DNA from: Squalus acanthias
Lineage: Eukaryota
Length of the DNA: 64,000 bases
Assembly (NCBI GenBank): GCA_030390025.1
Contig: CM059427.1
Location: forward strand, 189,038,001-189,102,000
Direction: 5' to 3'
The translations under genes were made by a program, and so were the position numbers. The notes below the pieces were generated by a model. That model made no database searches, had not been told where the DNA came from, and was given only the letters and a program-made list of their open reading frames with translations. Shown here piece by piece: positions 6,379-52,513 of this stretch. Each line of letters opens with the position of its first letter. The first letter of the stretch is position 1.

Positions 6379-9300
6379 ATAGAAACATAGAAACATAGAA
6401 AATAGGTACAGGAGTAGACCATTCGGTCCTTCGAGCCTGCACCGCCATTCAATGCGTTCATGGCTGAACATGCTACCTCAGTACCCCATTCCTGCTTTCT
6501 CGCCATACCCCTTGATCCCCCTAGTTGTGAGTGTTATATCTAACTCCCTTTTGAATATATTTAGCGAACTGGCCTCAACAACCTTCTGTGGAAGAGAATT
6601 CCATAGATTCACCATCTCTGGGTGAAGAAGTTCCTCCTCAGCTCAGTCTTAAATGGCTTCCCCTTAATCCTTAGACTGTGACCCCTGGTTCTAGTTTTCC
6701 CTAACATTGGGAACATTCTGCCCACATCTAATTTGTCTAAACCAGTCAGGATTTTAAATGTCTCTATAAGATCCCCCCTCATTCTTCTGAACTCCAGAGG
6801 ATACAAGTTCAGTTGACCCAATCTTTCTTGATATGTCAGTCCGGCCATCCCAGGAATCAATCTAGTGAACCTTCGCTGCACTCCCTCAATAGCAAGAATG
6901 TCCTTCCTTAAGTTAGGAGACCAAAACTGCGCACAATACTCCAGGTGTGGCCTCACCAAGGCCCTGTACAACTGCAGCATCACCTCCCTACTCCTGTACT
7001 CAAATCCCCTTACTATGAAGGCCATCATTCCGTTTGCTTTCTTGACTGCCTGCTGCACTTGCCTTCCCACCTTCAGTGACTGATGTACCATGACGCCCAG
7101 GTCTCGTTGCACCTCCCCTTTCCCTAATCTGCCACCATTCAGGTAATAGTCCACCTCTCTATTTTTACCACCAAAGTGGATAACCTCACATTTATCCACA
7201 TTGTACTTCATCTGCCATACATTTGCCCATTCACCCAACCTGTCCAAGTCACTCTGTAGCCTCCTAGCATCCTCCTCATTGTTCACACTGCCTCCCAATT
7301 TAGTGTCATCCGCAAATTTGGAGATATTACATTTAATCCCTTCGTCCAAATCATTAATATATAATGTAAACAGCTGGGGCCCCAGCACCGAACCCTGCGG
7401 TACCCCGCTGGTCACTGCCTGCCATTCTGAAAAGTACCCATTTACTCCTACTCTTTGTTTCCTGTGTGCCAACCAGTTCTCAATCCACATCAACACATTA
7501 CCCCCAATCCCATGTGCTTTAACTTTGCTCACCAATCTCTTGTGTGGAACCTTGTTGAAGGCCTTCTGAAAGTCCAAATACACCACATCTACTGGTTCCC
7601 CCCTGTCCACCCTATTGGAAACATCCTCAAAAAATTCCAGAAGATTTGTCAAGCATGATTTCCCTTTCACAAATCCATGCTGACTTGGACCTATCATGTC
7701 GCCACTTTCCAAATGGTCTGTTATGACATCTTTAATAATTGCTTCCATCATTTTACCCACGACCGATGTCAGGCTGACCGGTCTATAATTCCCTGCTTTC
7801 TCCCTCCCTCCTTTTTTAAAAAGAGGGGTTACATTGGCCACCCTCCACTCCATCGGAACTGATCCAGAGTCTAAGGAATGTTGGAAAATGATCGTCAATG
7901 CATCCACTATTTCCAAGGCCACCTCCTTAAGTACTCTGGGATGCAGACCATCAGGCCCCGGGGATTTTTCAGCCTTCAGTCCCATCAATTTCCCCAATAC
8001 CTTTTCCCGACTAATAAGGATTTCCCTCAGCTCCTCCCTCTTATCAGATCCTCTGACCCCTTTTATTTCCGGCAGGTTGTGTGTGTCCTCCACAGTAAAC
8101 ACCGAACCAAAGTACTTGTTCAATTGAAAAGCCATTTCCTTGTTCCCCATTACGACTTCCCCTGTTTCCGACTGCAGGGGACCTACGTTTGTTTTTACTA
8201 ACCTCTTTCTTTTTACATATTTATAGAAGCTTTTGCAGTCCATTTTAATGTTATCTGCAAGCTTCCTTTCATATTTTATTTTCCCTGCCCTAATCAAACC
8301 CTTCGTCCTCCTCTGCTGAGTTTTGAAGTTCTCCCAGTCCCCGGGTTTGCTGCTACTTCTGGCCAATTTGTATGCAACTTCCTTGGTTTTAATACTATCC
8401 CTGATTTCCCTTGTTAGCCATGGTTGAGCCACCTTCCCTTTTTTATTTTTACGCCAGACCGGGAAGTACAATTGTTGTAGTTCATCCATGCGATCTCTAA
8501 ATGTCTGCCATTGCCCTTCCACTGATAGCCCCTTAAATATCGCTTGCCAATTTAACCTCGCCAATTCACGCCTCATACCCTCAAAGTTGCCCTTATTTAA
8601 GTTCTGGACCATGGTCTCTGACTTAACTGTTTCCTTCTCCATCCTAATGTAGAACTCCACCATACTATGGTCACTCTTCCCCAGGGGGCCTCGTACCACA
8701 AGATTGCTGATTAGTCCTTCCTCATTACACAACACCCAGTCCAGGATGGCCTCCCCTCGAGTTGGTTCCTCAACATATTGGTTTAGGAAACCATCCCTTA
8801 AACACTCCAGGAAATCCTCCTCCACCGTATTGCTTCCAGTTTGAGTAGCCCAATCTTTATGCATATTAAAGTCACCCATGATAACTGCCGTGCCTTTTTT
8901 GCACGCACCTCTGATTTCCTGTTTCATACCCTCCCCCACCTCACTACTGCTGTTTGGAGGTCTGTACACAACTCCCACTAACATTTTCTGCCCTTTGGTG
9001 TTCTGCAGCTCAACCCATATTGATTCCACATCCTCCAAGCTGATGTCCTTCCTAGCTATTGCATTAATCTCTTCTTTAACCAGCAATGCTACCCCACCCC
9101 CTTTTCCTTTTATTCTATCCTTTCTGAATGTTGAATACCCCTGGATGTTCAGTTCCCAGCCTTGATTGTTCTGGAGCCACGTCTCTGTAATCCCAATCAC
9201 ATCGTATCTGTTAACATCTATTTGCACAGTCAATTCATCCACCTTATTACGGATACTCCTTGCATTAAGACACAGAGCCTTTAGGCTTATTTTATTAACA

Positions 9301-15238: not shown

Positions 15239-17480
15239 AGGAGAACATTTTTAGCCAGTATGTAACAAGTCCAACAAGAGAGGGGGCGGTTCTGGACTTA
15301 GTTTTAGTGAATGAAGCTGGGCAGACGGAAGGGGTATCAGTGGGGTAGCATTTTGGTGCTAGTGATAATAATTCAGTTAGATTTAGGGTAGTTATGGAAA
15401 AGGACAAAGATAGACCAGGAATAAAAGTTCTCAATTGGGGAAAAGCCAATTTTGCTAAATTGAGATGGGATTTAGCCAAAATGGACTGGAAACAGCTACT
15501 TGAAGGTAAATCAGTATCAGAGCAGTGGGAGGCATTCAAGGAGGAGATCCTGAGGGTTCAGAGCAAGTATTTTCCCTTAAAGAAAAAGGGTGGGACTAAC
15601 AAATCTAGAGCCCCCTGGATGTCAAGGGACATACAGGGTAGGATAAAGAAAAAAATGGAAGCTTATGACAGATACCGAGGGCTCAATACTGCAGAAACTC
15701 TAGAGGAGTATAGAAAGTGCAGGGGTGAAATTAAAAAGGAAATTAGGAAAGCAAAGAGAGAGCATGACAAAATTTTGGCAAGTAAAATCAAGTAAAACCC
15801 AAAGATGTTTTATAAATACATTAAGAGCAAGAGGATAACTAAAGAAAGAATAGGGCCTATTCGAGAACTTAAAGGTAATCTGTGTGTGGAGGCGGAAGAC
15901 ATGGGTATTGTTCTTAATGAATACTTTGCATCTGTATTCACAAAAGAGAGGGGCGATGCAGACATTGCAATCAGGGAGGAGGAGTGTGAAATATTAGATT
16001 AAATAAACATAGTGAGAGAGGAAGTATTAAGGGGCACAGCAGCTTTGAAAGTGGATAAATCCCCAGACCCGGATGAAATGTATCCCAGGCTGTTAAGAGA
16101 AGCAAAAGAGGAAATAGCAGAGGCTCTGACCATCATTTTCCAATCCTCTCTGGCCACAGGTGTGGTGCCAGAGGATTGGAGGACTGCTAAAGTGGTACCC
16201 TTGTTTAAAAAGGGAGAAAGGAATAGACCGAGTAATTACAGGCCAGTCAGCCTAAGCTCGGTGGTGGGAAAATTATTGGAAAATGTTCTGAGGGGCAGGG
16301 TAAATCTTCATTTAGAAAGAAATGGATTAATCAAGGACAGTCAGCATGGATTTGTTAAGGGAAGATCGTATCTGACTAACTTGATTGAATTTTTTGAGGA
16401 GGTAACAAGGAGGGTAGTGCATTTGATGTAGTGTATATGGATTTTAGCAAGGCTTTTGAGAAGGTCCCATTGGCAGACTGGTCATGAAAGTGAAAGCCCA
16501 GGGGATCGAAGGCAAAGTGGCAAGTTAGATCCAAAATTGGCTCAGAGGCAAGAAGCAAAGGGTAATGGTTGATGGGTGTTTTTGTGTCTGCAAGTCTGTT
16601 TCCAGTGGGACCCCGCAGGGCTCAGCACTAGGTCCCTTGCTTTTTGTGGTATATATCAATAATTTAGACTTAAATATAGAGGGTATGATTAAAAAGTTTG
16701 CAGATGATACTAAAATCGGCTGCGTGGTTGATAATGAAGAAGAAAGCCGTAGACTGCAGGAAGATATCAATGAACTGGTCAGGTGGGCAGAACAGTGGCA
16801 AATGGAATTCAATCTGAGTGCGGTTTAAACAGAGTGTTGCGAGTTGGGTGTGTCAGGAAGTCTTAACTGCTAAAATCAAACATTTGTTTGTTTCATGTTT
16901 ACTGTTACTGTTTACTGTTTAAAATCTAACTTGCCCAGCTTTAAGCAGGGTTATAAAGGGATATTCAAGGCCTACAATTCAGAGTAGCTGAAGGCATTTA
17001 ATTCGGGAAACTAGATTGAACTGGTTCTCTTGTAGTAGGTCTCAGCAAGCTCCTTTGTTTCAGGGCCTATAAAAACACGCTTTGCAGTGTGATTTTGCAC
17101 TGAGTGCAGTTTAAAGAGAGTGCTGCGAGTTGGGTGAGTCAGGGAGTGAGGTGAGGAGTGGAAGGAGGAGCTCCCTTGCTTTGCCTTTGTTTTTCTAACT
17201 TTTCAACTTTTAGGAATTGGTTCTTACTTTACACGAAGGAAAGAGTCGAGAGCGGGAGCAGTCAAATAACAACAACTGCAAATAAACTAAAGTGACGTCA
17301 AAACCAGGGAAGGAGCTGATTGGTAAATAGGACCTGGTGAGTATTTCTACAGTCCAGTCGTTAAAGTAAAAGTAAGGTCTCTAGTTTAGAGTAAGTAGTG
17401 TTTAAAGGGAAGTAAGGTCCCTAGTGTATTTAATATTCTTTAATTTAAAGGAAGTAAAGGGAGTAAATTAAGTGTAGGAC

Positions 17481-20683: not shown

Positions 20684-23600
20684 AGTGTGAAAGGCTTAGA
20701 GGGTGCGGAATTCTTAAAGTGCATCCAGGAGAGCTTTTTGAGCCAGCATGCAGAAAGTCCTACAAGAGAGGGGGGTGGTACTGGACCTCATTCTAGGGAA
20801 TACAACCGGGCAAGTGGTAGAAGTGTATGTAGGAGAGCATTTTGGTGACATTAACCGTAATTCGGTAAGATTTAAAGTGGTCATGGAAAAGGACAAAGAT
20901 GGACCGGAAATAAAGGTTCTAAATTGGGGGAAGGCCGATTTTAATATGATAAGGCAGGATCTGGCCAAAGTGGACTGGGATCAGCTACTTGTAGGAAAAT
21001 CTACATCAGAGCAGTGGGAGTCTTTCAGAAAGGAAATAGAGAGAGTACAATGCCAACATGTTCCCGTAAAGGTCAAGGGTGGGACCAACAAGCCCAGGGA
21101 ACCCTAGATGTCAAGGGATATACAAGAATGGATTAGGAAAAAAAGGGAGGCTTTTGGCAGATACAAAGGACTAAAAACAGTGGAAGCCCTAGAGGAGTAT
21201 AGAAAGTGCAGGGGGTTAATTAAAAAAGAAATTAGGAGAGCGAAGAGGGGGCATGAAAAAACACTGGTGGGCAAAATAAAGGAAAATCCCAATGTGTTGT
21301 ATAAGTATATTAAGGGTAAAAGGATAACCAGGGAAAGAGTAGGGCCCATTAGGGACCAAAGTGGCAATCTGTGTGCAGAGCAGGAAGATGTGGATGAGGT
21401 TTTAAATTAATATTTTGCATCTGTGTTCACTATGGAGAAGGACGATGTCGGCATAGAAATCAGGCAGGGGGATTGTGATATACTTGAACAAATTAGTATT
21501 GAGAGGGAGGAGGTACTAACGGTTTTAGCGGGCTTAAAAGTGGATAAATCCCCAGGCCCAGACGAGATGTATCCCAGGCTGCTGTGTGAGGCAAGGGAGG
21601 AGATTGCAGGGGCTCCGACACAAATTTTCAGAACCTCTCTGGCCACAGGGGAGGTGCCAGAGGACTGAAGAACAGCTAACGTAGTACTATTATTCAAGAA
21701 GGTTAGTAGGGATAAACCAGGGAATTACAGGCCAGTGAGCCTAACATCAGTGGTAGGGAAATTATTGGATAAAATTCTGAGGGACAGAATTAGTCTCCAC
21801 TTGGAAAGGTAAGGATTAATCAAGGATAGTCAGCATGGCTTTGTCAGAGGGAGATCATGTCTAACCAATTTGATTCAATTTTTCAAGGGGGTGACTAGGT
21901 GTGTGGATGAGGGTAGTGCAGTTGATGTAGTCTACATGGAGTTCACCAAGGCTTTTGACAAAGTCCAACATGGGAGACTGGTCAATAAGGTAAGAGCCCA
22001 TGGGATCCAGGGCAATTTGCCACATTGGATCCAAAATTGACTTAGTGGCAGGAGGCAGAGGGTGATGGTCGAAGGTTGTTTTTGTCACTGGAAGCCTGTG
22101 TCCAGTGGTGTACTGCAGGGATCGGTGCTGGGTCCTTTGCTGTTTGTAGTGTACATTAATGATTTGGATATGAATGTAGGAGGTATGATCAGTAAGTTCG
22201 CAGATGACACAAAAATTGGTGGAGTGGTAAATAGCGAGGAGGGAAGCCTCAGGCTACAGGACGATATAGACGGGTTGGTTAGATGGGCAGAACAGTGGCA
22301 AATGGAATTTAACCCTGAAAAGTTTGAGGTGATGCATTTTGGGAGCACTAATAAGGCAAGGAATACACAATGAATGGTAGGACCCTAGGAAGGACAGATG
22401 ATCAGAGGGACCTTGGTGTGCATGTACATAGATCCCTGAAGGCAGCAGGACAGGTAAATAAGGTGGTTAAAAAGGCATATGGGATACTTGCCTTCATTAG
22501 CCGAGGCATAGAATATAAGAGCAGGGAGGTTACGATGGAGCTGCACAAAATGCTAGTTAGGCCACAGCTGAAATACTGTGTGCAATTTTGGTCGCCACAC
22601 TATAGGAAGGATGTGATTGCATTGGAGAGGGTGCAGAAGAGATTCACCAGGATGTTACCTGGGATGGAGCGCTTCAGCTATGAAGAGAGACTGGACAGGC
22701 TGGAGTTGTTTTCCTTAGAGCAGAGAAGGCGAAGGGGGGACCTGATTGAGGTGTACAAAATTATGAGGGGCATAGATAGGGTAGATAGAAAGGAACTTTT
22801 CCCCTTATTAGAGGGGTCAATAACCAGGGGGCATAGTTTCAAGGTAAGGGGCAGGAGGTTTAGAGGGGATTTGAGGAAAAACTTTTTCACCCAGAGGGTT
22901 GTTGGAATCTAGAACTCACTGCCTGAAAGGGTGGTAGAGGCAGGAACCCTCACAACATTCAAGAAGCATTTCGATGAAAACTTGAAACGTCATAGCATAC
23001 AAGGCTACGGTCCAAGTGCTGGAGAATGGAATTAGAATAGACAGGGCTTGATGGCTGGCGCTGACACGATGGGCTGAAGGGCCTCTTTCTGTGCTGTATA
23101 ACTCTATGACTCCATGACTAAGTGTGAATGCATTTGGGGAGGGCTAACAAGGCAAGGGAATACACATTAAATGGTAGGACACTGAGAAGTGCAGAGGGAC
23201 AAAGGGACCTTGGAGTAACTGTCCACAGTTCCCTGAATGTAGCAGGCCAAGTAGATAAGGTGGTTAAGAAGGCATTCAGAATACTTGCCTTTATTAGCCG
23301 ATGCATAGAAAACAAGAGCAGGGAGGTTATGCTTGAACTGTATAAAACACTAGTTAGGCCACAGCTAGAGTTCTGCGAGAATACTGCGTGCAGTTCTGGT
23401 CACCACATTACAGGAAAGATGTGATTGCACTAGAGAGGGTACTGAGGAGATTTATGAGGATGTTGCCTGGACTGGAGAATTTTAGCTACGCGGAAAGATT
23501 GGAACAGAGGAGGCTGACGGGAAACCTTATTGAGGTGTATAAAATTATGAGGGACCTAGATAGAGTGGATAGGAAGGACCTATTTCCCTTAGCAGAGGGT

Positions 23601-24203
23601 TCCACAACCAGGGGGCATAGATTTAAATTAATTGTTCAGAGGTTTAGAGGGGATTTGAGGGGAAATTTCTTCACCCAGAGGCTGGTAGGAGTCTGAAAAT
23701 CACTGCCTGAAAGAGTGGCAGATTCAGAGACCCTCACCACGTTTAAAACATGCTTGGATGTGCACTTGAAGTGCTGTAACCTACAGGGCTACAGACCAAG
23801 AGCTGGACAGTGGGATTAGGGTGGATAGCTCTTTTTTGGCCAGCGTGGACACGATGGGCTGAAATGGCCTCCTTCCGTGCTGTAAATTTCTATGATTCTA
23901 TGGTTACCTCAGCGGGTCCGAGGTGAGTGCTGTCGGTGGTGGGTCGCGGCCCTGCAGCTGGCTCCATCCTGTTGCCTAAACGGAACTTGCTTTGATAGGG
24001 CTTGTTAAGCCTGCCCAGCGCGTTCCCCAGCCCAATTAGAGGAAGTGGGTCTGCTGATGTCATTCATGACACGCCATCAGCCGGTTTCCTTAAAGGGACC
24101 ATGGCCAACTTTGTTTTGATGCGGTGATGCCGGTGTTGGACTGGGGTGGACAAAATTGAGAGGTCGCACAACACCAGGTTATAGTCCAACAGTTTTATTT
24201 GAA

Positions 24204-24247
24204 ATCACAAGCTTTCGGAGCTATCGATCGCCCCTTCCTCAGGTGAA
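24204..24247 (-). ncRNA. Minimal hammerhead ribozyme motif (mirror copy)
   Basis: Reverse complement of 30401-30444. Confidence 0.75.
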
Positions 24248-24579
24248 GTAGTAAAGAAATACAGACTCGACAAAGCATATATAGATAGAGAACAATGCAT
24301 GTGTACCTTACAATTGCAGACAACTAAATTAAATCATCCTGACTATCTGCCGAGGTGTGATAAAGTTAATCAGGTCAGCCAGGAAGGTACCACATCAAAG
24401 ACATAGCAAGATACAACTGAGACAATGAGGTGGAGTCGCAGGGGTCTAACGTGTCAAAAGCTGCCGTCTGTATGTAAAACGATAAGCTGTAAAAATGTTT
24501 TACTTTTTTACTGGGAAAATTTTTACTTTTTTACTGGGAATCACATCTGTGAACAAGCCAACGACGACTCGAGTCCGGA

Positions 24580-27258
24580 TCACGTCATGTATCGTGACAT
24601 AAACCCAAGATCCCGGTTGAGACCGTCTTCATGAGTGCGGAACTTGGCTATCAGTTTCTGCTCGATGATTTTGCGCTGTCGTGTGTTCCTAAGGTTGCCT
24701 TGGAGAACGCTTTCCCGCAGATCCGAGGCTGAATGTCCTTGACTGCTGAAGTGTTCCCCGACTGGGAGGTAACAATCCTGCCTGGTGATTGTTGCGCGGT
24801 GCTCGTTCATACGTTGTCTCAGTGTCTGCATGGTCTCGCCGATGTACCATGCCGCGGTGCATTCTTTCCTGCAACGTATGAGGTAGACAACGTTGGCCGA
24901 GTCACATGAGTATGTACCATGTACCTGGTGGGTAGTGTCCTCACGTGTGATGGTGGTATCTGTGTTGATGATCTGGCATGTCTTGCAGAGTTTGCCGTGG
25001 CAGGGTTGTGTGGTGTCGTGGTCGCTGTTATCCTGAAAGCTGGGTAATTTGCTGCGAACGATGGTACTTCTGAGGTTAGGCGGCTGTTTGAAGGCAAGTA
25101 GTGGAGGCGTGGGGATGGCCTTAGCGAGGTGTTTGTCGTCATCGATGACATGTTGAAGGCTGCGAAGAACATGGCGTAGTTTCTCCGCTCCGGGGAAGTA
25201 CTGGATGACGTAGGGTACCCTGTTGGTTGTGTCCCGTGTTTGCCTTCTGAGGAGGTCTATGCGATTTTTCGCTGTGGCCCGTCGGAACTGTCGATCGATG
25301 AGTCGAGCGTCATATCCCGTTCTTACGAGGGCGTTTTTCAGCGTCAGTAGGTGTCCATCGCGTTCCTCCTCGTCTGAGCAGATCCTGTGTATTCGCAGGG
25401 CTTGTCCATAGGGGATGGCTTCTGTAACGTGGTTAGGGTGGAAGCTGGAGAAGTGGAGCATCGTGAGGTTGTCCGTGGGCTTGCGGTAGAGTGAAGTGCT
25501 GAGGTGTCCGTCTTTGATGGAGATTCGTGTGTCCAGGAATGAAACCGATTCTGAGGAGTAGTCCATGGTGAGTTTGATGGTGGGATGGAACTTGTTTATG
25601 TTATTGTGTAGTCTTTTCAGTGATCCTTCACCATGGATCCAAAGGAAGAAAATGTTGTCGATGTATCTGGTGTACAGTGTTGGCTGGAGGTCCTGTGCAG
25701 CGAGGAAGTCTTGCTCGAACTTGTGCATGAAGATGTTGGCGTATTGGGGTGCGAATTTGGTCCCCATGGCTGTTCCGTGTGTTTGGGTAAAAAAATGGTT
25801 GTCGAAGGTGAAGACATTGTGGTCAAGGATGAAGCGGATGAGTTGTAGGATGGTGTCTGGAGATTGGCTGTTGTTGGTGTTGAGTACTGAGGCTGTCGCA
25901 GCGATGCCGTCATCGTGGGGGATACTTGTGTAGAGTGCCGATACGTCCATCGTGGCGAGGAGTGTTCCTGGTTCAACTGGTCCATGGGTGGTGAGTTTCT
26001 GTAAGAAGTCTGTAGTGTCGCGACAGAAGCTGGGGGTTCCCTGTACGATGGGTTTCAGAATGCCCTCGACCTATCCAGAGAGGTTCTCACACAGGGTTCC
26101 ATTGCCTGATACGATAGGACGTCCGGGTGTGTTGGCTTTGTGTATCTTTGGGAGGCAGTAGAAGTCTCCCACGCGGGGAGTATGTGGGATGAGAGCGCGT
26201 AGGATGTTTTGAAGGTCTGGATCGAAGGTCTTGATCAGTCTATTGAGTTGGCGGGTGTGTTCTTTGGTCGGATCTGCGGGTAGCTGTCTGTAGTGTTCCT
26301 GGTTGTCCAGTTGTCGGTATGCTTCTTTACAATAGTCCGTTCTGTTCTGTATGACGATGGCTCCTCCTTTGTCCGCTGGTTTGATGACGATGTTGCGGTT
26401 GGTCTTGAGAGCGTGGATGGCGTTGCGTTGTGCTCGGGTGACATTCTGGACTGTCTTGTGAGTGCGGCTGATGAATCTGGCGTTGATGCATCTCCTGACC
26501 GCTTGAGCATACATGTCAAGCTTGGGGCATCGACCCTCCGGAGGGGTCCAGTTTGACTCTTTTTTCTTCGGTTGCTGCACTGCGAGTCCCTCTGTCTGCT
26601 GTTCTGGATCATTGATTGTCTCATTGGGTTTGTTGCTGACATCTTGGGATTTGTGGAAGTATTCCCGGAGCCTCATTCTCCTGATGAATTCCTCCGTGTC
26701 TGCCGCAAGACCGATGGGGTCCATTTTGGTGGTTGGGCAGAACTTGAGCCCCAGGGCGAGAACTTCGATTTCGTCTGGTTGAAGGGTATGGTCGGACAAG
26801 TTGACGATGGACTTCCCTGTGGTTGCAGCCGTGGTACCGGGGGAGGCTTGGTTGCTGCTGGTGGTGATGCCGAGTTTCTCAAGCTTCCTGTTCTTGATGC
26901 GCATGTAGGCAGCGTAGTTCCGTTGCCTCGTCTGTTTGGCGGTGTCTCGTAACTGGTCTGCTGTGTCCTGAGCACAGGCTGAGAGCATGGACTCTATCTT
27001 GGTTTCGAGGTTGCGACGTCTGCTGTAGAGCTGGTGTACGAGATGGTTGAGGAGTGTGCGAGAGGTACGACGGCAAAGTCTCTCAGCGTAGTCTGTGTTG
27101 TATGTCGACTTGAGTGGGTTCGTGATCTGTAGTCCTTTCGGAATCTTGTCTGCTTTCTTGCATCTCTGTAGATACTTGATGTCGGTGTCGATATGCGCGA
27201 TCTTCTTGGCGATTCTCTCCACTTTGAGCCGGCAGTTTGTGGTGTCGATAGTGGTCAT
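24580..27258 (-). pseudogene. Penelope-like RT + GIY-YIG ORF with one premature stop
   Basis: Same length as the right-arm ORF (2679 nt); TAC>TAG at 26071-26073 splits it into the two listed ORFs. Confidence 0.92.
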
Positions 27259-27389
27259 GATGCGGAGATGCCGGTGTTGGACTGGGGTGGACAAAATTGA
27301 GAGGTCACACAACACCAGGTTATAGTCCAACAGTTTTATTTGAATTCTCAATTTTGTCCACCCCAGTCCAACACCGGTATCTCCGCATC

Positions 27390-30068
27390 ATGACCACTAT
27401 CGACACCACAAACTGCCGGCTCAAAGTGGAGAGAATCGCCAAGAAGATCGCGCATATCGACACCGACATCAAGTATCTACAGAGATGCAAGAAAGCAGAC
27501 AAGATTCCGAAAGGACTACAGATCACGAACCCACTCAAGTCGACATACAACACAGACTACGCTGAGAGACTCTGCCGTCGTACCTCTCGCACACTCCTCA
27601 ACCATCTCGTACACCAGCTCTACAGCAAACGCCACAACCTCGAAACCAAGATAGAGTCCATGCTCTCAGCCTGTGCTCAGGACACAGCAGACCAGTTACG
27701 AGACACCGCCAAACAGACGAGGCAACGGAACTACGCTGCCTACATGCGCATCAAGAACAGGAAGCTTGAGAAACTTGGCATCACCACCAGCAGCAACCAA
27801 GCCTCCCCCGGTACCACGGCTGCAACCACAGGGAAGTCCATCGTCAACTTGTCCGACCATACCCTTCAACCAGACGAAATCGAAGTTCTCGCCCTAGGGC
27901 TCAAGTTCTGCCCAACCACCAAAATGGACCCCATCGGTCTTGCGGCAGACACGGAGGAATTCATCAGGAGAATGAGGCTCCGGGAATACTTCCACAAATC
28001 CCAAGATGTCAGCAACAAACCCAATGAGACAATCAATGATCCAGAACAGCAGACAGAGGGACTCGCAGTGCAGCAACCGAAGAAAAAAGAGTCAAACTGG
28101 ACCCCTCCGGAGGGTCGATGCCCCAAGCTTGACATGTATGCTCAAGCGGTCAGGAGATGCATCAACGCCAGATTCATCAGCCGCACTCACAAGACAGTCC
28201 AGAATGTCACCCGAGCACAACGCAACGCCATCCACGCTCTCAAGACCAACCGCAACATCGTCATCAAACCAGCGGACAAAGGAGGAGCCATCGTCATACA
28301 GAACAGAACGGACTATTGTAAAGAAGCATACCGACAACTGGACAACCAGGAACACTACAGACAGCTACCCGCAGATCCGACCAAAGAACACACCCGCCAA
28401 CTCAATAGACTGATCAAGACCTTCGATCCAGACCTTCAAAACATCCTACGCGCTCTCATCCCACATACTCCCCGCGTGGGAGACTTCTACTGCCTCCCAA
28501 AGATACACAAAGCCAACACACCCGGACGTCCTATCGTATCAGGCAATGGAACCCTGTGTGAGAACCTCTCTGGATACGTCGAGGGCATTCTGAAATCCAT
28601 CGTACAGGGAACCCCCAGCTTCTGTCGCGACACTACAGACTTCTTACAGAAACTCACCACCCATGGACCAGTTGAACCAGGAACACTCCTCGCCACGATG
28701 GACGTATCGGCACTCTACACCAGTATCCCCCACGATGACGGCATCGCTGCGACAGCCTCAGTACTCAACATCAACAACAGCCAATCTCCAGACACCATCC
28801 TACAACTCATCCGCTTCATCCTTGACCACAATGTCTTCACCTTCGACAACCATTTTTTTACCCAAACACACGGAACAGCCATGGGGACCAAATTCGCACC
28901 CCAATACGCCAACATCTTCATGCACAAGTTCGAGCAAGACTTCCTCGCTGCACAGGACCTCCAGCCAACACTGTACACCAGATACATCGACAACATTTTC
29001 TTCCTTTGGACCCATGGCGAAGGATCACTGAAAAGACTACACGATAACATAAACAAGTTCCATCCCACCATCAAACTCACCATGGACTACTCCTCAGAAT
29101 TGGTTTCATTCCTGGACACACGAATCTCCATCAAAGACGGACACCTCAACACTTCACTCTACCGCAAGCCCACGGACAACCTCACGATGCTCCACTTCTC
29201 CAGATTCCACCCTAACCACGTTAAAGAAGCCATCCCCTATGGACAAGCCCTGCGCATACACAGGATCTGCTCACACGAGGAGGAACGCGATGGACACCTA
29301 CGGACGCTGAAAAACGCCCTCGTAAGAACGGGATATGACGCTCGACTCATCGATCGACAGTTCCGACGGGCCACAGCGAAAAATCGCATAGACCTCCTCA
29401 GAAGGCAAACACGGGACACAACCAACAGGGTAACCTACGTCGTCCAGTACTTCCCCGGAGCGGAGAAACTATGCCATGTTCTTCGCAGCCTTCAACATGT
29501 CATCGATGACGACAAACACCTCGCTAAGGCCATCCCCACGCCTCCACTACTTGCCTTCAAACAGCCGCCTAACCTCAGAAGTACCATCGTTCGCAGCAAA
29601 TTACCCAGCTTTCAGGATAACAGCGACCACGACACCACACTACCCTGCCACGGCAAACTCTGCAAGACATGCCAGATCATCAACACAGATACCACCATCA
29701 CACGTGAGGACACTACCCACCAGGTACATGGTACATACTCATGTGACTCGGCCAACGTTGTCTACCTCATACGTTGCAGGAAAGAATGCACCGCGGCATG
29801 GTACATCGGCGAGACCATGCAGACACTGAGACAACGTATGAACGAGCACCGTGCAACAATCACCAGGCAGGATTGTTACCTCCCAGTCGGGGAACACTTC
29901 AGCAGTCAAGGACATTCAGCCTCGGATCTGCGGGTAAGCGTTCTCCAAGGCAACCTTAGGAACACACGACAGCGCAAAATCGTCGAGCAGAAACTGATAG
30001 CCAAGTTCCGCACTCATGAAGACGGTCTCAACCGGGATCTTGGGTTTATGTCACGATACATGACGTGA
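27390..30068 (+). CDS. Penelope-like RT + GIY-YIG endonuclease, 892 aa, open but with YIDN in RT
   Basis: IKPADKGG, LPKIHK, MDVSALYTSIP, GTAMG, RYIDN, FLD, PCHGKLCKTC linker, NVVYLIRC..YIGET; ATG at 27390 follows the pLTR. Confidence 0.92.
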   Translation: MTTIDTTNCRLKVERIAKKIAHIDTDIKYLQRCKKADKIPKGLQITNPLKSTYNTDYAERLCRRTSRTLLNHLVHQLYSKRHNLETKIESMLSACAQDTADQLRDTAKQTRQRNYAAYMRIKNRKLEKLGITTSSNQASPGTTAATTGKSIVNLSDHTLQPDEIEVLALGLKFCPTTKMDPIGLAADTEEFIRRMRLREYFHKSQDVSNKPNETINDPEQQTEGLAVQQPKKKESNWTPPEGRCPKLDMYAQAVRRCINARFISRTHKTVQNVTRAQRNAIHALKTNRNIVIKPADKGGAIVIQNRTDYCKEAYRQLDNQEHYRQLPADPTKEHTRQLNRLIKTFDPDLQNILRALIPHTPRVGDFYCLPKIHKANTPGRPIVSGNGTLCENLSGYVEGILKSIVQGTPSFCRDTTDFLQKLTTHGPVEPGTLLATMDVSALYTSIPHDDGIAATASVLNINNSQSPDTILQLIRFILDHNVFTFDNHFFTQTHGTAMGTKFAPQYANIFMHKFEQDFLAAQDLQPTLYTRYIDNIFFLWTHGEGSLKRLHDNINKFHPTIKLTMDYSSELVSFLDTRISIKDGHLNTSLYRKPTDNLTMLHFSRFHPNHVKEAIPYGQALRIHRICSHEEERDGHLRTLKNALVRTGYDARLIDRQFRRATAKNRIDLLRRQTRDTTNRVTYVVQYFPGAEKLCHVLRSLQHVIDDDKHLAKAIPTPPLLAFKQPPNLRSTIVRSKLPSFQDNSDHDTTLPCHGKLCKTCQIINTDTTITREDTTHQVHGTYSCDSANVVYLIRCRKECTAAWYIGETMQTLRQRMNEHRATITRQDCYLPVGEHFSSQGHSASDLRVSVLQGNLRNTRQRKIVEQKLIAKFRTHEDGLNRDLGFMSRYMT

Positions 30069-30400
30069 TCCGAACTCGAGTCGTCGTTGGCTTGTTCACA
30101 GATGTGATTCCCAGTAAAAAAGTAAAAATTTTCCCAGTAAAAAAGTAAAACATTTTTACAGCTTATCGTTTTACATACAGACGGCAGCTTTTGACACGTT
30201 AGACCCCTGCGACTCCACCTCATTGTCTCAGTTGTATCTTGCTATGTCTTTGATGTGGTACCTTCCTGGCTGACCTGATTAACTTTATCACACCTCGGCA
30301 GATAGTCAGGATGATTTAATTTAGTTGTCTGCAATTGTAAGGTACACATGCATTGTTCTCTATTTATATATGCTTTGTCGAGTCTGTATTTCTTTACTAC

Positions 30401-30444
30401 TTCACCTGAGGAAGGGGCGATCGATAGCTCCGAAAGCTTGTGAT
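30401..30444 (+). ncRNA. Minimal type I hammerhead ribozyme motif in Penelope pLTR
   Basis: UCAC-CUGAGGA-A-GGGGC..GCUCC-GAAA-GC-UU-GUGA: core boxes, stem II, palindromic stem III, stem I UCAC/GUGA. Confidence 0.75.
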
Positions 30445-30819
30445 TTCAAATAAAACTGTTGGACTATAACCTGGTGTTGTGCGACCTCTCAATTTTGTCA
30501 ACTTTGTTTTGACATTGGTGGTGTCAGTGTTCCACAGTATCGAAGTGCTGCAAACACTGACAATCACTGCAAAGAGGTGCAGGGCTGCACACAGGTTCTC
30601 CCATGACTAGCTCCATATAAACACACAGGGACGTCCTCTTCCCTTCCCATAAGCGGAAGAGACCTCCCCAGGAGACCAACACAGCCTGGTTGCGCATTGC
30701 GGCGGAGGTCACACGCAGGGATGTCGTCAGCAGGACCAGGGTGCAGTGGCGCAAACCTTTCAATGATCTCATTAGATCACAAAACATTCGGTCAAAGCCA
30801 CACTCACTTTGCACAAAAG

Positions 30820-31722
30820 AAGATGCTTGTGGTGGTTGGAGGTCAATCATCACAGCCCCAGGACATCACTGTGGGAGTTCCTCAGGGCAGTATCCTAGGC
30901 CCAACCATCTTCAGCTGCTTCATCAATGACCTTCCCTCCATCATAAGGTCAGAAGTGGGGATGTTCGCTGATGATTGCACAGTGTTCAGTTCCATATTTT
31001 GGACTCCACAGGAAGCATCTGGTTGAGTTTAACATTTGATGCATTTTTTAATGTTTAATGCCTTTCTTACTACAGGGTTATAGCCTATGAAACCCAGGCA
31101 GAGAGGACCTGCGGGAAGGAGGGAGGAGGACAGTAGGAGTATTTTTGTGTGTGTGTGCTAGGCCGATGTAGCAGAGCCTGGTCTCCAATCGTCTTGGATC
31201 CCCTTGCCATTGGACCAAGACCTTGCTCTGTCAAGCCCGTGTGGTAGCTGCTGTGCAATGGCCACCCCATGTTAAAAGAATTCATGCACAGGCATCTTCC
31301 ACCCTTTAAAATGAAGTTCGGGACCTGGAACGTCAGGACCCTCATGGACAACCCCAACAGCAACAGAGACTGTAGGTCCCGCATTGGACTCATCAGTCAC
31401 CTGAGAACTCATTTTTAGTGTGGAACAAGTCATCCTCTGTTCCGAGGGACTGCCTAAGAGAAGAAGTCCAGTTCCATTCGCAACTCCTCAGATAATGAAG
31501 TATTCTGTGCCCGCATGCAGCAAGACCTGGACGACTTTCAGGCTTGGGCTGATAAGTGGCAGGTTAACATTCATGCCACACAAGTACCAGGCAATGACTA
31601 TCTCCAACAAGTAAGCATCTAACCACCGCCCCTTGACATTCAATGGCATTACTATCGCCGATGGGCAATAAAATGCTGGGCTTGCCAGCGACGCCCAGAT
31701 CCCATGAACGAATAAAAAAAAG
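30820..31722 (+). mobile_element. CR1/L2-group LINE 3' part, internally deleted, with nested RTE derivative
   Basis: GVPQGSILGPTIFSCFINDL..MFADD; A-tail at ~31712-31721. Confidence 0.7.
30996..31465 (+). mobile_element. Non-autonomous RTE-derived element (5' end fused to 3' end)
   Basis: MKFGTWNVRTLMDNPNSNR (RTE APE start, 31311) fused to IGLISHLRTH-type C-terminus and an (AAG)-like tail; TSD cagttccat at 30987-95 and 31469-77. Confidence 0.65.
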
Positions 31723-32869: not shown

Positions 32870-34965
32870 ATAAGAACCTAAGAACTTAAGATATAGGAGC
32901 AGGAGGAGGCCATTTGGCTCTTCAGCCTGCTCCGCCATTCAATAAGATCATGGCTGATCTTCTACCGCATCTCCACTTTCCTGCAATATGCCGATATCAC
33001 TTGATTCCCTTAACATCCAAATATCTATTGATCTCTGTCTTGAATATACTCAATGACTGAACCTCCACAGCCCTCTGGTGTAGAGAATTCCAAAGATTCA
33101 CCACCCTCTCAGTGAAGAAATTTCTCCTCATCTCAGTCCTAAATGGCCGACCCCTTATTCTGAGACTGTGTACCCTGGGTCTAGACTCCCCAGCAATGGG
33201 GAAACATCCTCCCTGCATCTACCCTGTCAAGCCCTGTAACAATTTTGTATGTTTCAATGAGATCACCTCTCATTCTTCAAAACTCTAGAGAATATAGGCC
33301 TAGTTTGCTCAACCTCTCATCATAGGACAATCCCCCCATCCCAGGAATCAGTCAGGTGAACCTTCGTTGCACTCTCTCTATGGCAAGTATATCATCCTTA
33401 GGTAAGGAGATCAAAACTGTACACAATACTCCAGGTGTGATCTCACCAGGGCCCTATATAATTGCAGTAAGACACCTTTACTCTTATACTCAAATCCTCT
33501 TGTAATAAAGGCCAACATACCATTTGCTTTACTAATTGCTTACTGTACCTGCATGTTAACTTTAAGTGATTTGTGTACAAGGACACCCAGGTCGCTCTTA
33601 ACATCAACATTTCCCAATCTCTCACCATTTAAACATACACTGCTTTCTATTTTTCCTACCAAATTGGATAACTTCACATTTCTCCACATTATATTCCATT
33701 TGCCATGTTCTTGTCCACTCACTTAGCCTGTCTATATCTCCTTGAAGCCTACATAAGAATATAAGAACATAAGGAATAGGAGCAGGAATTGGACACTTGG
33801 CCCCTCGAGCCTGCTCCGCCATTCAATAAGATCATGGCTGATTTTGGGCTCAAAGCCACTTCCCCGCCTACTCCCCATAACCCTTCACTCCCTTATCTTG
33901 CAAAAATCTGTCTATCACCACCTTAAATGTATTTAATGACCCAGCCTCGACAGCTCTCTGGGGCAGAGAATTCGACAGATTTACGACCCTCTGAGAGAGG
34001 AAATTCCTCCTCATCTCAGTTCTAAAAGGGTGACCCTTTATTCTGAAACTGTGCCCCCGTGTTCTAGATTTCCCCACTAGGGGAAACATCCTCTCTGCAT
34101 CTATCTTCTCAAGCCCCCTCAGTATCTTATATGTTTCAATAAGATCACCTCTCATTCTTCTAAATTCCAATGAGCATAGGCCCAGCCTGCTCAACCTTTC
34201 CTCATAAGTCAACCCCCTCATCTCTGGAATTAACCTAGTGAATCGTCTCTGAACTGCCTCCAATGCAAGTATATCCTTCCTTAAATAAGGAGACCAAAAC
34301 TGTACGCAGTGCTCAAGGTGTAGTCTCACCAATACCCTGTACAGTTGTAGCAGGACTTCCCTGCTTTTATACTCCAACCCCTTTTAAATAAAGGCCAACA
34401 TTCCATTTGCCTTTTTGATTAATGCTGTACCTGCATGCTAACTTTTTGTGTTTCATGCACAAGGACCCCCAGGTCCCTCTGAACTGTAGCATTTTGTAAT
34501 CTCTCTCCATTTAAATAATAATTTGCTTTTTTATTTTTCCTGCCAAAGTGTATAACCTCACACTTTCCCACATTATACTCCACCTGCTGAATTTTTGCTC
34601 ACTCACTTAACCTATCTATATCCCTTTGCAGGTTCTTTGAGTCCTCTGCACAACTTGCTTTCCCACCCATCTTTATATCATCCGCAAACTTGGCTACATT
34701 ACACTCGGTCCCTTCATCCAAGTCATTAATGTAGATTGTAAATAGTTGAGGCCCCAGCAACGATCCCTGTGGCACCCCACGAGTTACTGTTTGCCAACGG
34801 GAAAATGACCCATTTATCCCGACTCTCTGCTTTCTGTTAGTTAGCCAATTCTCTATCCATGCTAATATATTACCCCCAATTCCGTGAGCTCTTATCTTAT
34901 GCAGTAACCTTTTTTGTGGCACCTTATCGAATGCCATCTGGAAATCCAAATACACCACATCCACT
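32870..34965 (-). mobile_element. Two adjacent or nested CR1 3' fragments
   Basis: Tails at ~32870 and ~33752; ORF2 C-terminal peptides at 32997-33750 and 33868-34965. Confidence 0.85.
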
Positions 34966-36470
34966 GGAAATAGTAGATGCATTGCTGGTCATCTTTCAAA
35001 ATTCTATAGACTCTGAAACAGTTCCCATGGATTGGAGGGTAGCTAATGTAACCCCACTATTTAAAAAAGGTGGTAGAGAAAAATCGGGGAATTATAGACC
35101 GGTAAGTCTGACATCGGTAGTGGGCAAAATGCTAGAGTCCATTATAAAAGATGTAATAGCAGAGCACTTGGAAAACCGTGACAGGATCGGACAAAGTCAA
35201 CATGGATTTACAAAAGGTAAATCATGCCGAACTAATCTACTGGAATTTTTTGAGGATGTAACTGGGAGAATAGATAAGGGAGAACCAGTGGATGTGGTGT
35301 ATTTGGACTTTCAGAAGGCTTTCGATAAGGTCCTGCATAAGAGATTAGCGTGCAAAGTTAAAGCACATGGGATTGGGGGTAAGATACTGATTTGGATAGA
35401 GAACTGGTTGGCAGACAGGAAGCAAAGAGTTGGAATAAACGGATCTTTTTCCGAGTGGCAGGCCGTGACTAGTGGGGTACCGCAGGGATCGGTGCTAGGA
35501 CCCCAGCTATTCACAATATATATTAATGATCTAGACGAGGGAACTAGATGTAATATCTCTAAGTTTGCAGACGACAAACAGCTGGGTGGGCGTGTGTGCT
35601 GTGAGCAGGATGCAGACAATCTCCAGTACGATTTGGACAGGTTGGGTGATTGGGCAGATGCATGGCAGATGCAGTATAATGTGGATAAATGCGAGGTAAT
35701 CCAATTTGGTATCAAAATCAGGAAGACAGATTATTATCTGAACGGCAATAGATTGGGAAAAGGGGAAGTGCAACGAGATCTGGAAATCCTTGTGCACCAG
35801 TCGCTGAAGGTAAGCATGCAGGTGCAGCAGGCGGTTAAGAAGGCAAATGGTATGTTTGCCTTCATAGCGAGAGGATTCAAGTACAGGAGCAAGGATGTCT
35901 TGCTGCAGTTGTACAAGGCCTTGGTGAGACCACACCTTGAGTATTGTGTGCAGTTTTGGTCGCCTTATCTGAGGAAGGATGTTCTTGCCATGGAGGGAGT
36001 GCAGCAAAGATTTACCAGGCTGATACCTGGGATGGCAGGAATGACGTATGAAGAGAGATTGGGTCGTTTAGGCTTATATTCGCTAGAGTTTAGAAGAATG
36101 AGAGGGGATCTCATTCAAACTTATAAAATTCTAACAGGACTAGACAGACTAGATGCAGGAAGGATGTTCCCGATGGCGGGGGAGTCCAGAATCAGAGTTC
36201 ACAGTGTAAGGATAAGGGGTAAGCCATTTAGGACTGAGATGAGGAGGAATTTCTTCACCCAGAGAGTGGTGAACCTGTCGAATTCTCAACCACAGAAGGC
36301 AGTTGAGGCCAATCCATTAAATATATTCAGCAAGGAGATAGATATATTTCTTAATGCTGAAGGGATCAAGGGATATGGGGAGAAAGCAGGCACAGGGTAC
36401 TGAATTTGGATGATCAGCCATGATCTCATTAAATGGCGGACCAGGTTCCTGTCCCTGTGTTCCTATGTAC
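34966..36470 (+). mobile_element. CR1 ORF2 RT half, 5'-truncated
   Basis: [11 protein letters not shown]...GVPQGSVLGP..FADD..KGYGEKAGTGY; close to the 46686-48868 copy. Confidence 0.9.
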
Positions 36471-37070: not shown

Positions 37071-37428
37071 CTGAGGTGGTGATGGGCCGTCCCCCCTCCC
37101 AATGACCTCCCTCTCCCACACAGTTTGATATTTAGTCACTCATCTCCCACAGATTCTCCTCAGTCTGGAACAGACAATGGATGAGAAGGGACTCTCCGAA
37201 CTTGGATTAGGAGGCGACGACTCAGCAACCAGATCACACCTCACTTCAGTTGAGGGAATCTCTCTTGACCTCATTTTCATTCACTGTAATACTTCCGTTC
37301 ATTTTGATAAACTATTTGTGACCCAGAATCTGGGGAAGTGAGTCCAGGTTTATTATGAAAGCGAGGAGCAGATCAAAGACCTGAAAGTTTCACACAGAAC
37401 AATCTCAGGCTTTTGCTGAGCCGTCTTG

Positions 37429-37856
37429 TCATGTCCAGAACTGGAGCTGTGCTGGATTCGAAGGGGTTTATCATGTACAGAACTGGAGCTGTGCTGGTTT
37501 CGAAGGGGTTGATCATGTCCAGAACTGGAGCTGTGCTGGATTCGAAGGGCTTTATCAGGTACAGAACTGGAGCTGTGCTGGTTTCGAAGGGGTTAATCAT
37601 GTACAGAACTGGAGCTGTGCTGGATTCGAAGGGGTTTATCATGTACAGAACTGGAGCTGTGCTGGATTCGAAGGGGTTTATCATGTACAGAACTGGAGCT
37701 GTGCTGGATTCGAAGGGGTTTATCATGTACAGAACTGGAGCTGTGCTGGATTCGAAGGGGTTTATCATGTACAGAACTGGAGCTGTGCTGGATTCGAAGG
37801 GGTTTATCATGTCCAGAACTGGAGCTGTGCTGGATTCGAAGGGGTTTATCATGTAC
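37429..37856. repeat. 42-bp minisatellite, about 10 near-identical units
   Basis: Unit tcatgtacagaactggagctgtgctggattcgaaggggttta, head-to-tail, no spacers. Confidence 0.95.
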
Positions 37857-38031
37857 ACAGATCCATTACCTTGGATGCATTTCCATAAATGGTTAAAAGA
37901 ATGGAGTCAAAATGAAAGGAAATATACTCTCCCTATTATTACAACATGGCTAAAGAGGATTAAAAACAGAAAATGCTGGAAAGCACTCAGCAGGACAGGC
38001 AGCATGTGTGGAGAGAGAAAGAGAGTTAATC

Positions 38032-46685: not shown

Positions 46686-48868
46686 AATAGAAACATAGAA
46701 ACATAGAAGATAGGAGCAGGAGTAGGCCATTCGGCCCCTCGAGCCTGTTCCGCCATTTAATGAGATCATGGCAGATCATCCAAATTCAGTACCCTGTCCC
46801 TGCTTTCTCCCCATATCCCTTGATCCCTTTAGCCTTAAGAAATATATCTAACTCCTTCTTGAATATATTTAATGAATTGGTCTCAACTGCCTTGTGTTGT
46901 GGAGAATTCCACAGGTTCACCACTCTCTGGGTGAAGAAATTCCTCCTCATCTCAGTCCTAAATTGCTTACCCCTTATCCTTAGACTGTGACCTCTGGTTC
47001 TGGACTCCCCCACCATCGGGAATATCCTTCCTGCATCTAGTCTGTCTAGTCCTGTTAGAATTTTATAAGTTTCAATAAGATCCCCTCTCATTCTTCTAAA
47101 CTCCAGTGAATATAAGCCTAATCGACCCAATCTCTCCTCATACATCATTCCTGCCATCCCAGGTATCAGTCTGGTGAATCTTCGCTGCACTTTCTCCATG
47201 GCAAGAACATCCTTCCTCAGATAAGGTGACCAAAATTGCACACAATACTCAAGGTGTGGTCTCACCAAGGCCTTGTACAACTGCAGCAAGACATCCTTGC
47301 TCCTGTACTCGAATCCTCTCGCCATGAAGGCCAACATACCATTTGCCTTCTTAACCGCCTGCTGCACTTGCATGCTTACCTTCAGCGACTGGTGCACAAG
47401 GACATCCAGGTCTCGTTGCACTTCCCCTTTTCCCAATCTATTGCCGTTCAGATAATAATATTTTTTCCTGTTTTTGCCACTGAAGTGGATAACCTCGCAT
47501 TTATCTACATTATACTGCATTTGCCATGCATCTGCCCAATCACCCAACCTGTCCAAATCATACTGGAGTTTCTCTGCATCCTCCTCACAGCACACATGCC
47601 CACCCAGCTTTGTGTCATCTGCAAACTTGGAGATATTACATCTAGTTCCCTCGTCTAGATTATTTATATATATTGTGAATAGCTGGGGTCCTAGCACCGA
47701 TCCCTGCGGTACCCCACTAGTCACTGCCTGCCACTCGGAAAAAGACCCGTTATTCCAACTCTTTGCTTCCTGTCTGCCAAAAAGTTCTCTTTCCAAGACA
47801 GTACCTTACCCCCAATCCCGTGTGCTTTAACTTTGCACGCTGATCTCTTATGCGGGACCTTATCGAAAGCCTTCTGAAAGTCTAAATACACCACATCCAC
47901 TGGTTCTCCCTTATCTATTCTACCAGTTACATACTCAAAAAATTCCAGTAGATTAGTCAAGCATGATTTACCTTTTGTAAATCCATGTTGACTTTCTCCG
48001 ATCCTGTCACTGTTTTCCAAGTGCTCTGCTATTACATCTTTTATAATGGACTCTAGCATTATCCCCACTACCGATGTCAGACTTACCGGTCTATAATTCC
48101 CCTTTTTCTCTCTGCCACCTTTTTTAAATAGTGGGGTTACATTAGCTATCCTCCAATCCATGGGAACTGTTCCAGAGTCTATAGAATTTTGGAAGATGAC
48201 CAGCAATGCATCTACTATTTCTAGGGCCACTTCCTTAAGTACCTTAGGATGTAGATTATCAGGCCCTGGGGATTTATCGGCCTTCAATCCCGTCAATTTC
48301 CCTAACACCATTTCCCTACAAATTCTGATTTCATTCAATTCCTCCCTCTCATTATACCCTATGTTCCCCGACATCTCTGGGAGGTTATTTTTATCCTCCT
48401 TTGTGAAGACAGAACCAAAGTATGTATTTAATTGGTCCGCCATTTCTTTGTTCCCCATTATAAATTTCCCTGATTCTGACTGCAAGGGACCTACAATTGA
48501 CTTCACCAATCTTTTTCTCTTCACATATCAATAAAAGCTTTTACAGTCAGTTTTTATGTTCCCTGAAAGCTTACTCTCATAATCTATTTTCCCCCTCTTA
48601 ATTAATCCCTTTGTCCTTCTTTGCTGAATCCTAAACTGCTCCCAATCCTCAGGTTTGCTGCTTTTTCTGGCCATATTATATGTCCTCTCCTTGGATCTTA
48701 TGCTATCCCTAATTTCCCTTTTTACCCACGTTTGAGTCACCTTTTTTGTTTTATTTTTATGCCAAACAGGGATTAACAAATTCTGTAGTTCATCCGTACG
48801 ATCTTTAAATGTTTGCCATTGCCTATCCACCATCAACCCTTTAAGTAATGTTCCCCAATCCATCCTAG
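46686..48868 (-). mobile_element. CR1 ORF2, 5'-truncated, frameshifted
   Basis: ORFs 48528-48863, 47721-48524 and 46786-47796; (tttctatg) tail. Confidence 0.9.
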
Positions 48869-49052
48869 GATGGAAATCAATGGAAATGAAAATTAGGAGA
48901 GATGTATAATGGGTGTCTGATCCGATACCGCTCGTTTATCTCTATCACACAAAGTCAATGTGGAGGCTGTTAGCAATAGTGGAGGGAAATAGGACACAAA
49001 GGATGAGGGGTCATCTCTGACAAAAAGAACAGTCAGTGACAATAATTTTCTA

Positions 49053-49683
49053 AAATGAGAAGTCGCACAACACCAGGTTATAGTCCAACAGATTTATTTA
49101 AAATTACAAGCTTTCGGAGCTGTCGCCAGTCCCAGTCCCAGTCGGGGAACACTTCAGCAGTCAAGGGCATTCAGCCTCGGATCTGCGGGTTCGCGTTCTC
49201 CAAGGCGGCCTTCGTGATACACGACAACGCAAAATCATCGAGCAGAAACTGATAGCCAAGTTCCGCACTCATGAGGATGGCCTCAATCGCGATATCGGGT
49301 TCATGTCACGCTATAGAACGTGACTTGACATCTTTGCCGGTCTTTCCAGTTTTAAAAAAAAACACAAGAAACAAACACAAAAAATGGAGAGGATATGCAG
49401 CCAGCAGGTGTTCTGACGCATTGGACCCCCTGGGACACATCTCATTGTCTTGGCTGTGCTCTTAGTGTGTCTTTGATGTAGGGAAAGATTTAATCTATGC
49501 ATTTTCTCCGTGTTTTTATATTCTGTGAATTCTGATAGATTCTCTCACAGTAACTTTGCCTGACGAAGGGGCGACAGCTCCGAAAGCTTGTAATTTTAAA
49601 TAAATCTGTTGGACTATAACCTGGTGTTGTGCGACTTCTCATTTTTGTCCACCCCAGTCCAACGCCGGCATCTCCGCATCATG
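49053..49683 (+). mobile_element. Short Penelope insertion: inverted pLTR piece plus GIY-YIG C-terminus and pLTR
   Basis: 12-bp TSD aataattttcta (49041-52, 49684-95); PVGEHFSSQGHSASDLR..EQKLIAKFRTHEDGLNRD. Confidence 0.88.
49556..49593 (+). ncRNA. Minimal hammerhead ribozyme motif, second Penelope subfamily
   Basis: UUGC-CUGACGA-A-GGGGC..GCUCC-GAAA-GC-UU-GUAA; stem I covaries relative to 30401-30444. Confidence 0.72.
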
Positions 49684-49719
49684 AATAATTTTCTATTGAG
49701 CACAAACCCTGAGTCACTT

Positions 49720-52118: not shown

Positions 52119-52165
52119 GATGAACTTTCTATGGAGGTTACAAAGAGAAAACCTGAGACACTTAC

Positions 52166-52435: not shown

Positions 52436-52513
52436 CTGTGGAAACAAGAAAATCATTTAGATTTTAAATAATAACTTGATCACTGAAAACAACGACAACA
52501 TTCTGTCTCCTAC

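Follow-up and report, generated by a model that had tools for sequence, protein, structure and literature searches.

Two whole Penelope-like copies joined head to head in one target duplication in Squalus acanthias, probably primed from both cut ends

Here we report the analysis of a 64-kb stretch of the Squalus acanthias genome (assembly GCA_030390025.1, contig CM059427.1, forward-strand positions 189,038,001 to 189,102,000; hereafter the window, whose own numbering is used throughout) that holds two whole copies of a Penelope-like element (PLE), joined at their 5′ ends within a single target-site duplication (TSD). Both copies are likely dead for reverse transcriptase (RT), and we judge it probable, with ample room for doubt, that they arose in one insertion event in which both cut ends of the target primed synthesis on one source RNA. 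The single TSD, the shared source of the arms, the one-sided tail and the symmetric target motif are observed. The layout is already published; the window copy is an extreme case of it, of value as evidence on the insertion mechanism.

Structure of the insertion

Compared with its own reverse complement, the interval 24146-30502 is 98.7% identical, and the whole palindrome extends over ~6.4 kb. The left arm (24117-27344, minus strand) is a whole Penelope-like unit with a 3′ tail and the right arm (27346-30499, plus strand) a whole unit without one; each measures ~3.15 kb. The two are 99% alike: their alignment spans 3157 columns without a single indel, and they differ at 31 of these, one being the first base past the right end. 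An unpaired centre of 43 bp (27303-27345) consists of 42 bp of further 5′ reach of the left arm and one T that matches neither arm. An earlier account of this DNA, made from its letters alone (the sequence-only reading), had described two reverse-complement arms of ~3.2 kb in one insertion around an asymmetric centre of ~40 bp, and the alignment together with the single flanking TSD bears out both statements. The 32-nt tail is confined to the left outer end (24117-24148, minus strand), and the 5′ end of the left arm falls 5 nt short of a predicted hammerhead cut. Terminal repeats of the pseudo-long terminal repeat (pLTR) type are present, 24117-24210 and 27258-27351 being 95.7% identical.

Two frames of 2679 nt are oriented outward from the centre. 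The right frame (27390-30068, plus strand) is uninterrupted and encodes 892 aa, with a DKG motif at residue 296, the RT core and, as RT catalytic motif, YIDNI at 532-536 (28983-28997), whereas the left frame (24580-27258, minus strand) is stopped by a TAG at codon 396 (26071-26073). YIDNI is found in both arms and replaces the YIDDI that is read in 65 of the 68 family copies with an RT motif. Since loss of the RT catalytic aspartate normally abolishes RT activity, the open right frame is likely RT-dead as well. In place of the features of an autonomous copy we found the left stop, the altered motif in both arms and, at both central ends, no TATA-like box (unit position 2976), so that neither frame would have the presumed element promoter. 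The sequence-only reading had credited the insertion with two complete open reading frames (ORFs), which is right as to their length and wrong as to their state; that description better fits another locus, L035+L036 (G000:C1:223718383-223728800), a head-to-head pair in a 12-bp TSD with both terminal ORFs open, zero differences between arms over 3083 columns, and one arm that continues as a tandem.

An assembly or long-read fold-back artefact could in principle produce such a palindrome, and we regard this as the least credible origin of all. At the left junction the contigs from four public runs were short, and repeat copies in the thousands drowned them out; no bridge occurs among the pieces listed (21,099 further pieces lie beyond these), and two loose contig ends there match the empty host repeat, possibly from a paralogue. 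However, the flanks of the insertion differ from each other and match empty paralogous sites on both sides, the arms are separated by 29 substitutions, which show transition and CpG bias, and by zero indels, and their unequal ends follow the rule of the family described below; on these grounds an artefact is unlikely.

Identity of the element

The predicted protein matches RVT_1 (E=1.4e-7) and GIY-YIG (E=1.5e-4; 22.4 bits, just under the cut-off of 22.6), and its frame contains the VVY/YIG, R..EH and DKG motifs; in its C-terminal part a CX4CxxC linker at residues 753-761 (C753-HGKL-C758-KT-C761) precedes a nuclease with the pattern VVY..C..C..YIG. The string VVYLIRCRKECTAAWYIG, found in the translation, is of the kind that marks endonuclease-bearing (EN+) Penelope-like proteins, its histidines not being placed by alignment. 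The nearest proteins are shark sequences with 79-92% identity, and none of the solved structures searched matched the RT-nuclease part. Judged by its motifs the element is therefore an EN+ PLE with a single ORF that encodes RT plus a GIY-YIG nuclease at the C terminus, and the domain matches and terminal repeats agree with the earlier identification as a Penelope-like RT and GIY-YIG element with terminal pLTR. According to the portion of PMC8557442 available to us, a CX2-5CxxC linker marks Neptune and Nematis, and Penelope and Poseidon are without it; because the linker is present, the element would be placed with Neptune/Nematis and not with strict Penelope/Poseidon, a placement by motif definition.

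A hammerhead-like core pattern lies in both outer pLTRs (24213-24242, minus strand; 30406-30435, plus strand), with a predicted fold that has stems I and II (z=-0.67). We took CTGAGGA...GAAA to be the hammerhead core, and in the window this pattern alone does not exceed chance expectation (6 of 100 shuffles). An Rfam search over 23500-31000 returned no hammerhead family, just two sub-threshold chance matches on the central hairpin.

Target duplication and target motif

Within the window the 14-mer CAACTTTGTTTTGA has just two occurrences, at 24106 and at 30499. Among 11 loci examined for the empty site (L139 and L141 gave no row in the motif scan), nine hold the motif once between contiguous flanks: three close paralogous sites in the same gene cluster (L131-L133, flanks ~91-98% identical) and six older copies of the host repeat. 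The duplication is therefore genuine; the sequence-only reading had named two copies of the 14-mer at the orthologous empty site as a finding that would count against it, and the paralogous empty sites hold one. The empty site reads TGGC-CAACTTTGTTTT-GACA. Because exact duplications across the family are 12 bp in 18 of 30 cases and the window site fits the family motif TGNN-[12]-NNCA, the cut was most likely staggered by 12 bp, giving a left TSD copy at 24106-24117 and a right copy at 30499-30510 (both plus strand; the apparent matches reach 24119 and 30512). The final two positions of the apparent 14-mer double as element sequence (microhomology), so that the single 14-bp TSD claimed earlier stands as a true duplication and is likely two bases shorter than stated.

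The target profile was drawn from 17 sites with a 12-bp TSD, L120 being omitted as its target is identical to that of L093; the TSDs of L065, L109 and L116 were read by eye, as was the tail state of six sites. T stands at −4 in 12 sites, G at −3 in 15, C at +15 in 16 and A at +16 in all 17, and the profile is mirror-symmetric, with r=0.70 to its own reverse complement, a value that none of 2000 column shuffles attained. Four sets of loci (L093/L111/L120, L101/L114, L031/L058 and L044/L116) are independent insertions into an identical position of other repeats; these positions are strong hot spots and fit TGNN-[12]-NNCA.

Family census

The 3.7-Gb genome contains 357 exact ORF starts, of which the census uses 100, at 88 sites with the window included. 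Inverted partners occur at 38 of the 88 sites, in line with the earlier statement that PLEs often carry inverted pLTRs. Three sites (the window among them) have two complete frames, at four more the shorter arm is at least 2.4 kb, and shorter-arm length runs continuously from 28 to 3546 bp. Genome-wide, five divergent ATG pairs lie ≤200 bp apart, and the two that are full-length on both sides are the window and L034 (1879-8212 of unplaced contig C311), a head-to-head pair with arms of two subfamilies. These figures put the window insertion at the long, symmetric end of a routine distribution.

Both ends were resolved in 35 of 42 inverted candidates (31 from the 88 sites and four additional); the seven with an unresolved or compound end (L032, L052, L064, L077, L118, L128 and L041+L042) were dropped. 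A tail of ~35 nt stands on exactly one outer end in 33 of the 35, on neither in two and on both in none, a polarity at odds with an independent 50:50 choice (P=1.8e-8); among copies with direct units only, 5 of 42 are tailed. Arm lengths are often unequal by kilobases, the longer 5′ reach belonging to the untailed arm in 18 of the 33 one-tailed insertions and to the tailed arm in 15. The arms are also close kin. In 27 of 28 insertions (L063, with 79 columns, was omitted) the partner arm is within the nearest 10% of 73-77 copies. In 26 of 27 insertions, many of them with only a brief overlap, 0-2 family-polymorphic sites separate the two arms; a level of ≤2 is reached by 5% of 861 pairs drawn at random. 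The window arms pair as sister tips (support 0.989), which together with the single TSD upholds the view of one insertion event and a shared source for the arms. An apparent recurrence of 5′ ends at unit positions 3009 and 3037 was produced by subfamily variation against the reference, and is not used here.

Side products of the same family were also seen. An older, shorter copy in the window itself (49040-49696, ~88% identity, 12-bp TSD) has a short untailed inverted arm and a tailed main arm, and obeys the same one-tail rule. L039+L040 is a tandem array of ~3.8 units (11.9 kb) inside one 12-bp duplication, and L033, L084 and L127 have inverted stubs barely longer than the tail. The tailed end of L032, L065, L109 and L116 continues, after a copy of only 20-27 nt, at ORF position ~43-92, as though priming from the tail had stalled or switched template early. 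Short ORF-less derivatives with the ORF start fused to the 3′ untranslated region (UTR) were found at L031, L038, L092, L100 and L102, in units of ~135-400 bp, some of them tandem; they resemble the non-autonomous retrozymes described in the accessible part of bioRxiv 10.64898/2026.07.22.740005.

Proposed insertion mechanism

In the event that we favour, the element protein would cut the target with a 12-bp stagger and both 3′ ends would become primers on one source RNA, the first starting where the tail does, near the ATG that opens the following unit, and the second ~32-35 nt further upstream. Each would be copied toward the 5′ end of the RNA, the second probably displacing the first cDNA, and the two cDNA ends would then be joined by end-joining repair, here with zero microhomology and one extra base. 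One or both copies would usually stop early, leaving the familiar short inverted pLTR; in the window both would have been nearly completed. Two primers, one for each 3′ overhang, directly explain how the tail can stand on the arm with the shorter 5′ reach, and the near-nearest kinship of the arms points to a shared RNA. As the target profile is mirror-symmetric, the asymmetry of the start sites is not read from the DNA, and it is most easily explained by placing both start sites on one RNA molecule.

The sequence-only reading had instead proposed a hairpin-primed or template-switch route, in which the first cDNA (or an antisense RNA, PMC3846280) self-primes and is copied back. This is the sole proposal that we found in print, made for rotifer elements; it predicts identical arms, and some centres are native micro-palindromes (L032). 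A fold-back copy can contain only what the first arm holds, however, and it is therefore at odds with the 18 of 33 insertions in which the shorter arm has a tail that is missing from the outer end of the longer one. The frequent inequality of the arms by kilobases also speaks against it, the fixed ~35-nt offset is given no reason, and the window junction shows no pairing suited to self-priming; we consider the route improbable.

A closer rival, which we think rather unlikely and yet deserving of serious weight, has the two cut ends prime on two separate RNAs bound by a dimer, usually from the same active source locus. It needs no strand displacement, the tail polarity and the balance of arm lengths fit any two-primer model, and it accommodates L034, where arms from two subfamilies sit inside one apparent duplication. 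Against it, a symmetric target and two equal RNAs give no reason for the strict one-tail polarity, and rare, probably trans-moved templates occur on both arms in the window (the YIDN source) and at L031 and L114, whose templates are ORF-less or deleted.

Several points weigh against priming from both ends on one RNA. The L034 arms differ at 21 family-polymorphic sites, which one RNA unit cannot yield; this locus belongs to an unplaced contig, has a hot-spot repeat as its target and an imperfect duplication, and could be a two-RNA event or a hot-spot recombinant. The compound locus L041+L042, one of those dropped, is tailed at both outermost ends. Two RNAs of one active locus would also give kin arms, and in the available part of PMC11167929 no difference in start site was seen between strands. 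In the window it is the longer arm that carries the tail, which fold-back would need too, and the window copy alone therefore cannot separate the two routes.

As a tentative generalisation, to which we would give somewhat less than even credence, PLEs may insert by means of a dimer that copies one RNA twice, from two fixed starts a tail apart, onto symmetric 12-bp cut ends, with the window as the limiting case in which a single RT-dead RNA was moved in trans and twice copied nearly in full. If so, the enzyme would have to displace a 3-kb cDNA or re-use its template.

History of the copy

Within the arms 29 differences (0.94%) were followed, 28 of them private-like and split 15 versus 14 between the arms; those within the frame comprise 8 synonymous and 19 non-synonymous changes (pN/pS 0.70). 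This fits arms that were identical at birth and then decayed neutrally by ~0.47% each. Among 13 scored alleles common to both arms, seven prove to be subfamily marks when set against the closest relatives examined, for which two YIDN carriers and 20 of the 22 further carriers of allele 1555 were used. The other six (117, 1076, 1268, 1275, 1405 and 1603) are absent from L151 and L160, which are the nearest copies, within the stretches that these two cover. Because the arms share the RT-motif change and five alleles missing in the closest relatives, the source copy itself was, on a judgement a little better than even, already aged and RT-dead and was moved in trans.

Later conversion of one arm by the other is an alternative for the shared alleles, and two observations fit such gene conversion: the six alleles show mild clustering (P=0.018), and over a stretch of 681 bp the arms have no differences (P=0.021). 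The same signs could be cited for two separate events, in which a second copy landed in, or was duplicated beside, the first and the arms were later homogenised. We hold this to be very improbable: one duplication flanks the whole unit and none lies at the centre, identical polarity recurs at 33 sites, and arms of the youngest pairs show zero differences across 3083 columns (L035+L036).

Exact 31-mer searches of the shared alleles did not find the source copy. The 31-mer that spans alleles 1268 and 1275 is present only in the two window arms, other shared alleles occur at 24 and 95 places, and the YIDN 31-mer occurs at two other places, both without the other rare alleles.

Genomic surroundings

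The insertion interrupts a dispersed host repeat (23906-24119 on the left and 30499-30806 on the right), with a Myb/SANT-like match in the frame 30621-30926. Frames resembling V- and C2/I-type exons of the immunoglobulin (Ig) superfamily lie on the minus strand on either side (668-1045, 52107-52463 and 52467-52880). The surrounding Ig locus of the sequence-only reading holds to that extent; for an antigen-receptor locus we found no J or C1 motif in the window or in 104 kb, and in the window a single poor match resembling a recombination signal sequence. The cluster is a tandem array of Ig-superfamily genes, V then C2-type exons, with paralogues near 83.2 kb and, on the left, ~17 kb outside the window, and its atlas look-alikes include the CD200R, CD4 and PD-1 families, as candidates only. 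Leader, first-domain and membrane exons were looked for around the insertion, and none was located. Read-through RNA, if present, would by complementarity fold into a duplex of ~3.1 kb.

The window also contains many copies of LINE (endonuclease-RT) type (6609-8984 on the minus strand, 34859-36403, 46741-48830 and 15239-16812), one with a 791-aa open frame, and a second, distant inverted pair (34964-36448 and 46741-48224, 93.6%). Minisatellites with periods of 42 bp and 37 bp lie at 37426-37857 and at L049-L050 (73.2-74.9 kb in window coordinates). The palindrome locus is likely dead, and an ordinary outcome of PLE insertion. A single event can plant a near-perfect palindrome of 6.4 kb, and such a palindrome can persist in a vertebrate genome for long enough to accumulate ~0.5% change per arm.

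Comparison with known systems

In the twin priming of L1 both target nicks prime RT on one RNA and an inversion results within one duplication; the second primer pairs with the RNA deep in its interior, and the two pieces therefore do not overlap. Here, in contrast, both starts are near the 3′ end and the same sequence is copied twice.

Among PLEs, PMC8557442 describes, in the part available, the EN+ unit as a partial tandem with an adjacent inverted 5′-truncated copy and a 30-40 bp tail at one end, a common arrangement, and calls the route to tandem and inverted insertions undefined; the accessible text of PMC3846280 reports Pen2a_Av with an inverted 5′ copy and a one-sided tail, for which self-priming was proposed. 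The window copy shares with these units the head-to-head inverted copy, the single TSD, the one-sided tail, a putative hammerhead-like core in the pLTR and a GIY-YIG at the C terminus. Unlike the units published there, as far as those portions describe them, its inverted copy is the whole element and not a short piece, its TSD is 12 bp and not the 8-10 bp of the rotifer examples, and its target TGNN-[12]-NNCA is mirror-symmetric. No account of full-length inverted PLE pairs or of two-ended priming was found in the literature searched, and older subscription papers or supplements may cover them. With Neptune/Nematis, as characterised in the same part of PMC8557442, the element has in common the CX2-5CxxC linker before GIY-YIG, the C-terminal nuclease and the DKG motif, and differs in that the sites examined give no sign of microsatellite targeting.

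A mechanistic parallel comes from PAc, a Poseidon element of Anolis carolinensis, which according to the available text of PMC11167929 cuts and extends both strands in vitro, initiates RT at a pair of sites separated by one tail and is predicted to be dimeric; inverted insertions are not accounted for there. Priming from both cut ends fits this behaviour in that both strands are cut and extended from two start sites a tail apart, and the cut region is AT-rich in both systems. The two differ, on the same portion of that paper, in that PAc starts RT ~111-118 nt into the ORF and the 3′ ends here lie at the ATG and ~35 nt before it, and in the CX4CxxC linker, which the group of PAc (Penelope/Poseidon) is without. 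The family census argues against simple fold-back and yields a concrete model that could be tested in the PAc in vitro system.

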